Shown: piece after piece, positions 8,462 to 30,708 of the stretch
How positions within the stretch are numbered: the stretch's first letter is position 1
How the letters are laid out: each line of letters opens with the position of its first letter
Virus record (IMG/VR): IMGVR_UViG_3300027278_000006
Coordinates: 1 to 64,000 of that record
Source of the DNA: an uncultured virus (IMG/VR IMGVR_UViG_3300027278_000006)
Taxonomy: Duplodnaviria; Heunggongvirae; Uroviricota; Caudoviricetes
Length of the DNA stretch: 64,000 nt
Direction: 5' to 3' (one strand)
Made by a program: the position numbers and the translations under genes
The notes under the pieces: model-generated
The model's input: only the letters and a program-made list of their open reading frames with translations
Told to the model about the DNA's origin: nothing
Databases searched by the model: none

Positions 8462-8719
8462 CAATTGTGTTATCGTAGTGGTTCTTTATCCTCTACTTCT
8501 TACTATCGCTAGTAAGTTCAGACTATCTCTTCATCCTTATGTTTATTAAGGAGTCGGGCATTCGTGGGTGGATTATTGTTGGGACTCACCACCTAGTCGT
8601 TAGACCTTTCAGAAAACTTTAACCCTTTCTGACTTGGTACGGGATTGTCTCATAGAGAGTTTCCCCGTTTAACCCGATTTTACTAATGCCTATTACTAGG
8701 CAAGAACACCAACAAATCT
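8462..8719 (-). mobile_element. Group I intron 3 in psbA (258 nt, no ORF), after Ala336
   Basis: Exon ends in U, intron ends in G; P1 GAACGCU/GGUGUUC with U-G at the splice site; core CUAACGACUA..GAAGAGAUAGUCUG. Confidence 0.92.
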
Positions 8720-8837
8720 AGCGTTCCGTTCATGCATGACCTCAAGGCCGAGACCAGCACGATTTAAAATGTCCGCCCAAGTAGGAATTACTCGGTTTTG
8801 ACTATCAACGATGGACTGGTTAAAATTAAAACCATTA
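8720..8837 (-). CDS. psbA: PSII D1 exon 3 (codons 297-336)
   Basis: (L)[39 protein letters not shown]. Confidence 0.95.
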
Positions 8838-10200
<1,363 letters not shown>

Positions 10201-10845: not shown

Positions 10846-10894
10846 TTAATTAAAAGGGTAAATATGAGTTCGGGGGACGAACTGGGTACAGTAT

Positions 10895-10962
10895 ACTCCA
10901 CGACACCCTCTATCGTGGATATGAGGGATGCTTTACTTCTCGTGATCCCGGTTGGAGAAGAC
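10895..10962 (-). ncRNA. PhotoRC-II-like structured 5' leader of psbA
   Basis: CUUCUC/GAGAAG stem, GGGAU/AUCCC pseudoknot, UCCACGAUA-GAGGG-UGUCGUGGA hairpin; position upstream of phage psbA. Confidence 0.7.
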
Positions 10963-10989
10963 ACGGTTCTTAACCCCGTGTATGTATAT

Positions 10990-24339: not shown

Positions 24340-24345
24340 GGGGTC

Positions 24346-24540
24346 TTTAGGCTCGCCACTTATTCTTTGACTGGAAATAAGAAACCAGGCGGGAGTATTC
24401 TCCATCCGCACCACCAATTTTTTAAGGAAATTGGAAACCTATTGAGGGGTCATTTTGGATCCACCAGTGCTTTTAGAGTCTCTCCGTGACTAAAGGGGGG
24501 TTCATCACCGACCAGTACTTTTAGAGACTCTCCGTGTCTT
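24346..24540 (-). ncRNA. Tandem structured RNA modules; 3' pair resembles the cyanophage wcaG RNA motif
   Basis: Two H-type pseudoknots each followed by UGGYG, preceded by two 32-nt covarying repeats. Confidence 0.6.
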
Positions 24541-27715: not shown

Positions 27716-29197
27716 TCAGAATGTGAACTTGGTCTGAACCACACCACCCCAAGAAGATTCTCCTTGATAACGGGCATTATTGCTCACATAGAAGATAGCA
27801 GGAGTGATGCTGATGTTGTCCGAAACTTGATACTTATAGAAGACTTCAAGCATCGCGGCATCTTCACCAACGAAGTCAGAATTACCGGGTTGACCAATAG
27901 CAACACCAGCAGTATTACCTTTGGCAAACACATCAGACCACTGAAGTCCAACGAACCAGGAATCAGAATCGGTGGCACCAGTTTTAGAACCTTTACCATC
28001 TACATCATTATATCCATAACCAACTGAGATAGAAGGAACGAATCCACTCTGAGAAGGTTGCCAGTAAGCATTCACAGCAACGCTATTGCTTTCCTGACCT
28101 GCGGCAAGGGCACCAGACCCGCCTCCAAGGGCGTTGAAGGTACGGACACGACTGCCTTCAGTACCATAACGGTAAGCAACGGCAGCACCCCACTGAGGAG
28201 CACGATAACCAACTTGTGTCATAAAGTTCAATCCACTATCTGAATTGAAGACACCAGTTTCAGTGTTATCACCATCTTGAGAGACATAGTTCAGACCAGC
28301 AAGGAAACCTCCCTGACCTTTTGGAACTTGTTGCTTCCATTGAGCACCAAAACCAGCACCAGTTGCCTTGTTATAGACACCAGAGGCACCACCAAGTTGA
28401 AAGAAGTCAAGGATTTCCGACTTATAAGCAGAAGGAACCCATGCCATCTCAGTGTTACGAACCAGAGGACCAGCAGTTAGAGTTACACTCTTACCAACTG
28501 GGAACTGATAGTACAGACGGTCAATCACAACTTGGTCGGCATAAGATTCTGCCTTATCAAGTTTGAAGAGTGAAGAACTGGAACCAAAAGGATCGCTACT
28601 GAAGTTACCAGAACGCAGACGAGTACGGAGCAAGTCCTTACCAGTGAAAGAGGTATCAAAGTTCAGACGAACATCATAGTTGAATGCAGTATTACCTACA
28701 TCAACACGTTTGTTAGTTTCAAGACCAGGAACACCGCCAAGAATAAAGTTTACTTCACCTTTGAGTTTGGTAGTGGTTGAAAACTGAGTTGCCTGCAGTT
28801 GTCCAACTTTGTTCTCAAGACCATCTACACGAGAAGTGAGTACAGTTAGTTCTGTATCAAATTCAGCAAGAAGTTTTTTGAGTTCATCTGTGGTTTCAGT
28901 TACACGATCAAGGCAGGCATTCAGCAGTGCTGCTGCCTCAAAACGGGTCATTGCCTGACCACCTTTGTATGTGCCGTTAGGATAACCTGCTACGCAACCA
29001 TAACGCTCTACAAGATTGCTAAGTGCCTGATATGCCCAATCAGTAGGTTGGACATCAGTAAATTGTGTAATGCTAGTGACTTGTTGTGCCGAAGCATACT
29101 TGTTGACATCCTCAGTATTGAGTTCTGCGGCATTCACAGCAGGAGCAACAAGACTCAGTGCAACAGGCACAAGCATCATTTGTTTGAAAAATTTCAT
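27716..29197 (-). CDS. Cyanobacterial outer-membrane porin (Som/OprB type with SLH domain)
   Basis: Signal peptide, DVQPTDWAYQALSNLVERYGCVAGYP SLH, coiled coil, FSTTTKLKG, terminal F. Confidence 0.93.
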   Translation of the reverse strand: MKFFKQMMLVPVALSLVAPAVNAAELNTEDVNKYASAQQVTSITQFTDVQPTDWAYQALSNLVERYGCVAGYPNGTYKGGQAMTRFEAAALLNACLDRVTETTDELKKLLAEFDTELTVLTSRVDGLENKVGQLQATQFSTTTKLKGEVNFILGGVPGLETNKRVDVGNTAFNYDVRLNFDTSFTGKDLLRTRLRSGNFSSDPFGSSSSLFKLDKAESYADQVVIDRLYYQFPVGKSVTLTAGPLVRNTEMAWVPSAYKSEILDFFQLGGASGVYNKATGAGFGAQWKQQVPKGQGGFLAGLNYVSQDGDNTETGVFNSDSGLNFMTQVGYRAPQWGAAVAYRYGTEGSRVRTFNALGGGSGALAAGQESNSVAVNAYWQPSQSGFVPSISVGYGYNDVDGKGSKTGATDSDSWFVGLQWSDVFAKGNTAGVAIGQPGNSDFVGEDAAMLEVFYKYQVSDNISITPAIFYVSNNARYQGESSWGGVVQTKFTF

Positions 29198-29256
29198 ATA
29201 GTTCGTTAAGATTTACAACTACGAAGTTTATTTAGCTCCCCTGATATTTTAGGGGA

Positions 29257-29327
29257 AGCGGATACACGGATTTGAACCGAGGATAAAAGTTTGGAAAACT
29301 CTTGTGTTGCCACTACACCATATCCGC
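29257..29327 (-). tRNA. tRNA-Gly(UCC)
   Basis: Cloverleaf; loop UUUCCAA. Confidence 0.88.
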
Positions 29328-29329
29328 AA

Positions 29330-29402
29330 TGTTGAGAGTGGAAGGTTTCGCATCCTTCTACCGTATCCCTTATCGGGGTGCCTTACTTTTGGCATCACTC
29401 TC
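29330..29402 (-). pseudogene. Degenerate tRNA-like element (Ile-GAU-like)
   Basis: Perfect acceptor GAGAGUG/CACUCUC, D and T stems; anticodon arm CCC-CGAUAA-GGG is shortened. Confidence 0.5.
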
Positions 29403-29852
29403 GGCGGGGAAATTATTTTTATTCCCCCAAGTTTTTGTTTGAGAATGACAATTGGGACAAAGAAATCTTAGATTTTCCATCCTATTATCATTAGAAACTC
29501 CGTTTATATGGTCTAATTGAAGAGAAAGTTTTTGTCCATTCCAATCAATTATACCACATTCGGAACATTTATATTTGAAAATTTCTTCTTTAATAATTCT
29601 ATTCCTAAGAGTTGATCTATCGCAAGTAGAATTTTCACAAAACATTTCCTCAAAAGTATAAGGAATAGTGTTCCTACTTCTTTTTTTAAATTGAGGTTGT
29701 ATATTGTGATGTGCAAAATCTTTTTTTAAAGTAGCATAAGTAGTGCTACTTTTATTAAGACCCAATCTCCTTACGACCTCAGCCATTGATTGAGATGCTT
29801 CAACTGCATTTAATAATTCAGTTTTAGTTCTCATTTTACTTAGCACATACAC
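29370..29852 (-). CDS. HNH endonuclease within the tRNA array
   Basis: CSECG..LQLDHING..DNRMENLRFLCPNCHSQT. Confidence 0.88.
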   Translation of the reverse strand: MYVLSKMRTKTELLNAVEASQSMAEVVRRLGLNKSSTTYATLKKDFAHHNIQPQFKKRSRNTIPYTFEEMFCENSTCDRSTLRNRIIKEEIFKYKCSECGIIDWNGQKLSLQLDHINGVSNDNRMENLRFLCPNCHSQTKTWGNKNNFPAESDAKSKAPR

Positions 29853-29893
29853 TTCCTATTTAGGGAAGTATGCTCCTCCACACGGACTCATGA

Positions 29894-29922
29894 ATTATAA
29901 GACATAACGAATATTATGTCAA
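29894..29922 (-). promoter_or_regulatory. Sigma70 consensus promoter
   Basis: TTGACA-N17-TATAAT just 3' of tRNA-Thr. Confidence 0.75.
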
Positions 29923-29993
29923 GCCCCTGATCCGATTTGAACGGACGACCAACGGTTTACAAAACCGTTGCTCTACCACTGAGCTACAAGGGC
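29922..29993 (-). tRNA. tRNA-Thr(UGU)
   Basis: Cloverleaf; loop UUUGUAA. Confidence 0.92.
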
Positions 29994-29996
29994 GGA

Positions 29997-30158
29997 TGGG
30001 TATCGAGTGTCCGACACCCGCAGAAGACACTTTCTGCAAAAAACACCAAACCTTATTCTTCCTGTTTTTCAGGTAATTTCCAAATCGGTTGGGAGTTTCC
30101 TCCCGAAGTTTGTTTAGCGTTTTTGTTTTGGAAGACCCAGACATTTCCAGACCTTCCA
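29997..30158 (-). ncRNA. Multi-stem ncRNA with kissing loops between tRNA-Asn and tRNA-Thr
   Basis: At least six stems; loops AGUGUC and GACACU are complementary. Confidence 0.65.
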
Positions 30159-30159
30159 A

Positions 30160-30232
30160 CTCCCCGAGTTGGGCACGATCCAACAACCTCAGTGTTAACA
30201 GCACTTTGCTCTACCAATTGAGCTATCGGGGA
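30160..30232 (-). tRNA. tRNA-Asn(GUU), atypical T loop
   Basis: Cloverleaf; loop CUGUUAA; T loop AUCGUGC. Confidence 0.85.
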
Positions 30233-30332
30233 ATGATGGGGCAAGTGTGATATATCTCATAAGGATATAACAGGGACTTACCCTCGTTTGCTACCGGCAT
30301 TCTGGTTTATCTTTCCAGTGCAAAGTAGCAAG

Positions 30333-30405
30333 CGTCCCGTGTAGGATTCGCACCCACGACCGATTCTTTAGAAGAGAATTGCTCTGTCTCCTGAGCTAAC
30401 GGGAC
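30333..30405 (-). tRNA. tRNA-Arg(UCU)
   Basis: Cloverleaf; loop CUUCUAA; T loop UGCGAAU. Confidence 0.88.
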
Positions 30406-30519
30406 ATAAAGGGACCTCCCTGTTTGAGCATCGTTGAGAGGCTTGGGAGGTGTGGGATTTATAAGAAGTTTGGACCTCCTCCACCCGTCAAACTACTATA
30501 AGGCATCAGGGCACTAAAG

Positions 30520-30708
30520 TCAACCCTTTGCTTCCTTACGGGCGTTCTTCTCTTCGGTAATCTCGCCTCTACGGGTCTTGACCAGTTTGGCAACTTCCTG
30601 AAGTGCCTTACGGGCACGAGTACCAGCGGCACTATTACCAGCAGTGAACTTTTCGTCTTCTACTTTCCACGCTTCAATAGCAGTCAGTAGTTCTTGTGAT
30701 ACAGACAT
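30520..30708 (-). CDS. Small basic Hc1/histone H1-like family protein
   Basis: EKFTAGNSAAGTRARKALQE. Confidence 0.7.
   Translation of the reverse strand: MSVSQELLTAIEAWKVEDEKFTAGNSAAGTRARKALQEVAKLVKTRRGEITEEKNARKEAKG

Follow-up and report, generated by a model that had tools for sequence, protein, structure and literature searches.

Clusters of tRNA genes in phages are commonly interpreted as codon-usage or anti-nuclease devices alone. Spacers of E. coli tRNA operons (3'ETS-leuZ and internal spacers) act as sRNA sponges. Within the tRNA cluster of phage T4, the RNA genes rnaD (119 nt; species 2) and rnaC (139 nt; species 1) are located directly after tRNA-Arg. Both RNAs have been confirmed by Northern blot, and their functions are called unknown where PMC9697503 deals with them. 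ROOL and GOLLD, as presented in PMC12286853, are phage and prophage RNAs that are often found near tRNA islands and form homo-oligomers via RNA-RNA contacts. The manA motif is described as a riboswitch candidate in the 5' UTRs of mannose/fructose, nucleotide or photosynthesis genes (PMC2864571), and in cyanophage S-CREM1 the order wcaG, manA, abiF is listed near a tRNA array (Table 4 of PMC9964418). No paper on an RNA that follows a cyanophage tRNA-Asn was found in our literature search. Here, we describe a cyanophage tRNA cluster that carries a conserved non-tRNA passenger, which would extend the T4 RNA C/D phenomenon to cyanophages.

The window, meaning the whole stretch of 64,000 nt analysed here, makes up the first 64 kb of an IMG/VR virus record that is 128.5 kb long. 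On the minus strand of the window, Rfam models identified seven tRNAs, two group I introns, and wcaG, PhotoRC-II and abiF RNAs. The nearest cultured relative is the freshwater Synechococcus phage S-SRM01 (Kyanoviridae, freshwater reservoir, 240.8 kb). The tRNA region aligns with S-SRM01 over 98% of 561 nt and other cultured phages match its tRNAs alone, which on sequence grounds identifies the window virus as a T4-like cyanophage. The two group I introns (8499-8729 and 8846-9072, minus strand; 63 and 88 bits) are separated by 117 nt, and the PhotoRC-II RNA and the wcaG RNA (96 bits) are located on the minus strand at 10883-10973 and 24345-24442. Two host-like proteins flank the tRNA array and are both annotated in S-SRM01 too: a cyanobacterial-type outer-membrane porin (SLH + OprB, 493 aa; 27716-29197, minus strand) and a 62-aa Hc1 histone-H1-like protein (30520-30708, minus strand). 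The features of the Asn-Thr region are as follows.

30495-30523, minus strand: promoter-like site TTGACT-17-TATAGT (consensus scan, 10/12 matches), upstream of the abiF RNA and tRNA-Arg
30160-30232, minus strand: tRNA-Asn(GTT), the 5' flank (Rfam tRNA model 56.1 bits; ARAGORN 30159-30233)
30129-30158, minus strand: module A, a 12-13 bp hairpin, UGGAAGGUCUGGA-AAUG-UCUGGGUCUUCCA
30039-30124, minus strand: module B1, a 13-bp closing stem P1, AAAAACGCUAAAC/GUUUGGUGUUUUU, followed by an internal loop
30020-30037, minus strand: hairpin D1, GCAGAA-AGUGUC-UUCUGC, with a 6-bp stem
29998-30019, minus strand: hairpin D2, GGGUGUCG-GACACU-CGAUACCC, with an 8-bp stem
29922-29993, minus strand: tRNA-Thr(TGT), the 3' flank (Rfam tRNA model 69.7 bits; ARAGORN concurs)

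Since the Rfam tRNA model trims tRNA-Asn to 30160-30232, the Asn-Thr spacer comprises 29994-30159 (166 nt, minus strand). Hairpin A begins 2 nt past the tRNA-Asn discriminator, G at 30160 (the junction reads ...CGGGGAG-UU-GGAAGG), and D ends 4 nt ahead of tRNA-Thr, the 5' end of which is the expected RNase P site. CCA is encoded by neither tRNA. As to coding potential, the spacer is overlapped solely by ORFs that run across tRNA genes.

Like T4 rnaC and rnaD, the spacer RNA is placed inside a tRNA cluster on the tRNA strand, starts 1-2 nt past a tRNA gene and is of similar size. A homing endonuclease gene is also found in both arrays, segB in T4 and an HNH ORF in the window. This HNH ORF (160 aa; Pfam HNH, 23.9 bits; 29370-29852, minus strand) is located between tRNA-Thr and tRNA-Gly, in parallel to segB of the T4 tRNA cluster, and is absent from the corresponding position in S-SRM01. 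No homology was detected: models R1 (for D) and R2 (for B1) gave no match in the whole T4 genome at E≤1. T4 rnaC has a tRNA-like T-arm, whereas the window's spacer RNA has none, and T4 rnaC and rnaD end their array, whereas the spacer RNA sits between two tRNAs. The modular shuffling of the spacer RNA reported below has not been described for the T4 RNAs. The spacer RNA appears to be a new RNA family within a known but unexplained kind, that of T4 RNA C and D. ROOL and GOLLD are several-fold larger (GOLLD often >800 nt), have integrated tertiary folds, and show no sequence or model match here. The E. coli tRNA spacers are likewise transcribed spacers freed by tRNA processing, and there an own trans function is known; however, they are short, largely unstructured, base-pairing and bacterial, whereas the window carries 166 nt of stable predicted hairpins in a virus.

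Known RNA families were searched with Rfam 15. No match to the spacer was obtained at the gathering score in the window, nor at E≤10 in 29200-30700, where tRNA and abiF alone score, nor at E≤0.1 among 16 homologous loci in which modules A, B1 to B4, C and D are all represented. The first-pass annotation had suggested either the manA motif or a new class. The manA model (RF01745) is among those unmatched at all three settings, and manA is therefore excluded as far as a covariance model can tell; the new-class option survives. The location also differs, as manA lies in the 5' UTR of a protein-coding gene and the spacer RNA lies between tRNA-Asn and tRNA-Thr. What the two share is their occurrence in T4-like cyanophages, with manA near the tRNA array in S-CREM1. 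Neither ARAGORN nor the Rfam tRNA model calls a tRNA inside 29994-30159. For the 10,006 viral structured-RNA candidates catalogued in PMC10690425, neither a 12-nt motif nor two sample numbers had a match in the part of the supplements covered, and six full contig ids were not found in file 4.

The Asn-Thr spacer encodes a real, conserved and tightly folded RNA on the minus strand. Every helix that had been listed from the letters alone is found on this strand and is recovered in both the MFE and the centroid structure (ViennaRNA). The whole spacer folds with an MFE of -62.6 kcal/mol, compared to -39.2 ± 3.9 for 200 dinucleotide shuffles (z -6.09), none of which folds as well. The opposite strand reaches -43.4 kcal/mol (z -2.09), a weaker fold that is expected because the minus-strand fold is rich in G.U pairs. 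Folded singly, A, B1 and D have z of -3.5, -4.5 and -4.7. The proposed single complex ncRNA of 160 nt is thus confirmed as a genuine structured RNA on the tRNA strand that spans the whole Asn-Thr spacer, is better read as three modules that are shuffled independently, and would be released by tRNA end-processing. Homologues were collected and checked for covariation, which gave a positive result for A and D and one covarying pair for B1.

Module A (MFE -13.0 kcal/mol) has four G.U pairs, and its apical GGAAAUGUC is conserved. Its covariation was analysed in 74 distinct homologues; 6 of 80 distinct post-Asn 36-mers were left out, as they start directly with C or D. In this set 97.6% of cells are paired and 7 of the 12 pairs are changed on both sides. 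The covariation score is 0.393, compared to 0.206 for shuffles, and is reached by none of 500 shuffles; sliding the partners by 1-3 columns makes the signal collapse. Hairpin A starts 1-2 nt past tRNA-Asn in nearly all of the 74 variants.

In module D, the R1 model matches 29998-30037 with 65.6 bits (E 3.3e-15), its sole match in the 128.5-kb record. Among 32 distinct sequences that were gathered with no constraint on D, pairs changed on both sides number 3/6 in D1 and 5/8 in D2, so that 8 of the 14 stem pairs covary, and 98.0% of cells are paired over the whole tested D structure. A set collected by pattern, from which 2 of 35 distinct D 40-mers (L103 and L113) were left out as having no D2, gave 2/6 and 4/8. 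The D1 loop, A-AGUGUC-U, is near-invariant, and the D2 loop, G-N-CACU, is complementary to it. The exact complementarity of AGUGUC and GACACU reported earlier for the window was confirmed. In the 32 sequences, 186 of 192 loop-loop cells pair and 6 are unpaired. None of the six loop-loop pairs is changed on both sides: three never vary, two vary on one side, and one departs via unpaired cells alone. Two loop-1 U-to-C changes are uncompensated, and the fifth pair is mismatched in 4/32. The second base of loop 2, facing a fixed U, is G in 21 sequences, A in 7, and U or C in 4. As the loop-loop pairing is conserved but none of its pairs covaries, the sequence evidence on a D1-D2 contact appears neutral.

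The 6-bp loop duplex has a predicted energy of -6.4 kcal/mol, or -5.8 kcal/mol with the common G.U. In a loop-loop contact with all pairs formed, the new helix stacks between the two stems. The D1 and D2 stems abut with a 0-nt linker, while in an intramolecular kiss their bases would be about 20 bp apart, and we infer from this that a 6-bp kiss within one molecule seems implausible on steric grounds. The D loops may instead make a head-to-tail contact between molecules, or both may be read by a protein.

In module B1 (MFE -26.8 kcal/mol), the internal loop is followed by a 3-bp UUC/GAA helix, which was absent from the helices listed in the first-pass annotation. The junction contains P2 (GGGAG-GAAA-CUCCC), P3 (CC-GAUUU-GG) and P4 (CCUG-AAAAA-CAGG), of which P3 is weak, with just 2 bp (CC/GG) in the window. 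The R2 model matches 30040-30123 (72.7 bits, E 4.6e-15), its sole match in the window. RNAalifold predicted 27 pairs from 20 distinct B1 sequences. One pair covaries, in the UUC/GAA helix (U-A in 12 and C-G in 8 of the 20 sequences), and six P1 pairs vary on one side in a wobble-compatible way; this pattern recurs in a further set of 12 distinct sequences. Indels are confined to the tips of P2, P3 and P4. Because just one pair changes on both sides, the B1 structure is plausible and less secure. In several relatives (e.g. L001:1835-1850, L036 and L054), the GAAA tip of P2 is swapped for a perfect palindrome, CUCUAGAG, CCUUAAGG or CCUUGCAAGG, the central four bases being self-complementary in all three. 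These palindromic tips could be a dimerisation loop or a DNA-level site.

A search was performed to retrieve related elements from IMG/VR and metagenomes. In IMG/VR, pattern scans recovered the hairpin-A core at 24 loci and the twin-hairpin core at 76, and a degenerate twin-hairpin pattern gave 75 metagenome loci, of which 2 are chance matches. Scans anchored on hairpin C yielded 91 loci and those anchored on B1 yielded 52, with many contigs recurring between scans; 5 of the 52 B1-anchored loci (L269, L276, L278, L280 and L319) are chance matches in coding regions and were left out. Counted by sequence from the upstream tRNA to the end of D, 106 distinct viral or metagenomic elements were obtained.

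Comparison of the distinct spacers side by side indicated that the order of modules is fixed and their content variable. Module A comes first, directly after tRNA-Asn, and D comes last. The middle position holds B1, one of at least three unrelated alternatives (B2, B3 and B4, the last of which carries a T-arm-like GGUUCGAUACC), or nothing. A further hairpin, C (CACUGC-CCUCUAAU-GCAGUG), is often present in relatives and is absent from the window. Among the C-anchored loci, D is present in 91/91 and B1 in 26/91. In total, 85 distinct elements fall into 22 architectures defined by regular expressions, e.g. A-C-D, A-B2-C-D and A-B3-D. Some loci have no A, no D or no middle module, the shortest spacers being 79-107 nt. 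The A-B1-D arrangement of the window, which lacks C, is a minority form with 4 distinct sequences. Linkers between modules are A/U-rich. Modules A, B1 and D fold independently and are exchanged like cassettes among related phages.

The position of these elements among the tRNA genes is also largely fixed. In the 177 loci with an A or D pattern, the nearest upstream tRNA is Asn in 141, Arg in 7, Phe in 2, Leu in 2 and Met in 1, and none was detected in 24. Three of the loci that depart from Asn (L020, L029 and L045) have, before hairpin A, a tRNA-like stretch of non-canonical form, with the anticodon GUU and an enlarged D region, which was missed by ARAGORN; another conserved non-tRNA module of about 85 nt (AAUGUAGGAAGUGCAAC...CCCUCCUAC) precedes this stretch. 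Of the 106 distinct elements, 99 are followed by a tRNA (Thr 46, Val 25, Leu 17, His 6, and others). The gap between the end of D and this tRNA is 3-5 nt in 77 of these 99, whichever tRNA it is, and D lies 77-178 nt from it in 21. Both the 128.5-kb record that contains the window and the complete genome of S-SRM01 carry one copy of the element.

The spacer recurs in S-SRM01, where four helices show compensatory changes and two insertions are present; there the element has the architecture A-B1-C-D and spans 184353-184558 of MW015081. Identity to S-SRM01 is 93% for A, 84% for B1 and 85% for D, and 73% for tRNA-Arg, 53% for tRNA-Asn and 76% for tRNA-Thr. Judged by these values, the spacer RNA appears to be under tighter constraint than the adjoining tRNAs. 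Among GenBank phages, blastn of 165 nt at E≤1 found, beyond S-SRM01 (2 records), just a 38-nt match in the tail-fibre gene of S-TIM5. None of five marine or estuarine Kyanoviridae genomes matched the D model at E below 0.5; two weak matches have E of 0.59, the best value there, and 0.99. In these genomes the gene after tRNA-Asn is a CDS or, 2 nt on, tRNA-Val. A host origin was also considered. The D pattern has 0 matches in 185,579 prokaryote species genomes, in exact-pattern scans that divergent copies would escape. Four matches of the B1 pattern in prokaryote genomes have neither a tRNA nor a B1 context and are attributed to chance. The spacer RNA thus appears restricted to viruses.

No terminator-like site was predicted on the minus strand between the promoter-like site at 30495-30523 and tRNA-Thr. 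In public sequencing data, 24 runs, 22 of which are registered as RNA, have some words in common with the region, and four of the 24 were aligned. Two 151-nt contigs identical to the window, with a depth of 2, were found in one metatranscriptome (X1). One starts at 30159, immediately after the Asn discriminator, and extends to 30009. The other (30147-30297) bridges the junction of tRNA-Asn and A and therefore derives from unprocessed precursor or from DNA. These contigs are a weak hint of a spacer transcript, as they are assembled sequences from libraries in which DNA is possible, and RNA ends and levels lie beyond them. In the aligned runs other than X1, 30049-30153 is uncovered, which is uninformative on expression. 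In a relative found in a second run (X2), C-D comes directly after tRNA-Asn.

Taken with these data, the spacer RNA is probably a phage-specific, modular structured ncRNA that is excised, remains stable on its own, and acts during infection by binding or titrating a factor of the host or of the phage. Its structure, the covariation of A and D, its conservation beyond that of the adjoining tRNAs, its fixed placement and its confinement to viruses are observed; transcription, excision, stability and trans action would proceed as follows. A polycistronic minus-strand precursor would run from the promoter-like site through the abiF-motif RNA, tRNA-Arg, tRNA-Asn and the spacer RNA to tRNA-Thr. A cut of RNase Z type at the 3' end of the CCA-less tRNA-Asn, after G30160, and an RNase P cut before tRNA-Thr, between 29994 and 29993, would free an RNA of about 166 nt. 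The freed RNA would have a 2-nt overhang followed by hairpin A at one end, and hairpin D2 followed by a 4-nt overhang at the other. The terminal hairpins may protect it, a layout expected of an exonuclease-resistant stable RNA. Overhang requirements of exonucleases come from E. coli enzymology and may not hold in cyanobacteria. As the stems drift and compensate while the apical GGAAAUGUC, A-AGUGUC-U and G-N-CACU stay fixed, the loops would be recognition surfaces for a trans partner, either protein or RNA. The spacer RNA would then be a functional analogue of T4 RNAs C and D. As the modules can each be dispensed with, function may reside in the single hairpins and not in the 166-nt RNA as a whole.

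The main rival explanation is a cis-acting processing or insulator element that guides or orders the RNase Z, RNase P and RNase E cuts, or blocks tRNA misfolding, with the excised piece as a by-product. The strict spacing to both tRNA ends, seen for A in nearly all 74 variants and for D in 77/99 elements whichever tRNA follows, fits such a role in tRNA maturation equally well, and the A/U-rich linkers agree with it. Against it, other array spacers are short and contain nothing alike (the Ser-Pro spacer here is 25 nt and the Asn-Val spacer of S-RIM44 is 2 nt), and marine cyanophages process tRNA-Asn with no such element, as the five genomes negative for the D model indicate. Moreover, an insulator needs no invariant loop sequences, and in 21/99 elements D is far from the next tRNA. 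We consider this cis role rather unlikely. The twin hairpin may instead be a self-assembling RNA, in which D1 and D2 stack base-to-base into a dumbbell; through its complementary end loops, molecules would link up head-to-tail as dimers, rings or filaments. Nearly all loop-loop cells remain complementary, the loop duplex has a predicted energy of -6.4 or -5.8 kcal/mol, and the 0-nt linker, by our reasoning, counters an intramolecular kiss. The homo-oligomers reported for ROOL and GOLLD near phage tRNA islands offer a precedent (PMC12286853). However, none of the six loop-loop pairs covaries, the two U-to-C variants of loop 1 are uncompensated, the fifth pair is mismatched in 4/32 sequences, and both loops could contact a protein instead; we regard self-assembly as decidedly improbable.

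Two further explanations carry little weight. A DNA-level operator, origin or recombination site could be built on the inverted repeat AGTGTC-N14-GACACT and the other palindromes; the repeat has invariant half-sites at a distance of 20 bp, is followed downstream after about 100 bp by a perfect sigma-70-like promoter, and the P2 tips of relatives are perfect DNA palindromes. Yet the compensatory changes in A, D1 and D2 keep pairing and not sequence, the fold is strand-specific through its many G.U pairs (z -6.1 vs -2.1), and the half-sites are unequally conserved, with U fixed in one facing N in the other, so a DNA-level site is very unlikely. Least probable of all, with hardly any chance of being right, is that the spacer holds a described family, manA or other, or a decayed tRNA or tRNA-like gene. 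The four-helix junction of B1 and the presence of manA near the tRNA array of cyanophage S-CREM1, as listed in PMC9964418, speak for a described family; Rfam matches limited to the flanking tRNAs and abiF speak against it. Against a decayed tRNA, ARAGORN finds no tRNA in the spacer, and the spacer RNA is better conserved than the real tRNAs alongside.

An abiF RNA motif (RF03085) is located at 30414-30450 on the minus strand, 8 nt upstream of tRNA-Arg, and scores 57.2 bits, where the gathering score is 37. The S-SRM01 copy is 86% identical, with changes in the stems, and the motif is present in two other relatives (L021 and L078). No Abi_2/AbiF protein was found in the 128.5-kb record, which is about 60% complete. 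The motif is also reported in cyanophage S-CREM1 (PMC9964418), and in Clostridioides difficile it is presented as an RNA antitoxin that binds AbiF (PMC12373285). As it acts as an antitoxin in C. difficile, the orphan copy borne by the phage could, by analogy, be an anti-AbiF decoy. An RNA counter-defence theme for the whole operon, drawn by analogy from the orphan abiF RNA alone, is worth testing. A bolder version, which we regard as a long shot, is that the operon is an RNA "arsenal" of the orphan abiF RNA, decoy cassettes after tRNA-Asn and self-assembling D multimers. If so, each cassette would decoy a host RNA-binding defence or processing protein, and D dumbbells would join head-to-tail into RNA-only multimers, a miniature counterpart of ROOL and GOLLD. 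Modules that act as decoys or self-assembling units would add an RNA layer to phage counter-defence. With more than 100 variants, clear covariation, a cultured member in S-SRM01 and cassette-like evolution, the role of such RNAs becomes testable.

A second conserved non-tRNA element, GAGGGUAAGUCCC...AUAUCACACUUGCCCCAUCAUU, was identified in the Arg-Asn spacer (30233-30283, minus strand). It is 92% identical to S-SRM01, above any flanking tRNA, has no Rfam match, and occurs in just a few D-bearing leader types. Short contigs of high depth cover it in two metatranscriptomes. Pairing of the D1 loop with its ACACUU tail was considered and rejected: the element precedes tRNA-Asn in 6/89 D-bearing leader/loop combinations, and a tail variant, ACGUUU, is unmatched by any D1 change. 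On the other side of the spacer, a perfect promoter-like sequence, TTGACA-17-TATAAT (29894-29922, minus strand), starts at the last base of tRNA-Thr and is conserved in S-SRM01. Its spacer is an inverted repeat (GACATAA...TTATGTC), and similar palindromic promoters are found after tRNA-Arg in L020 and L045.
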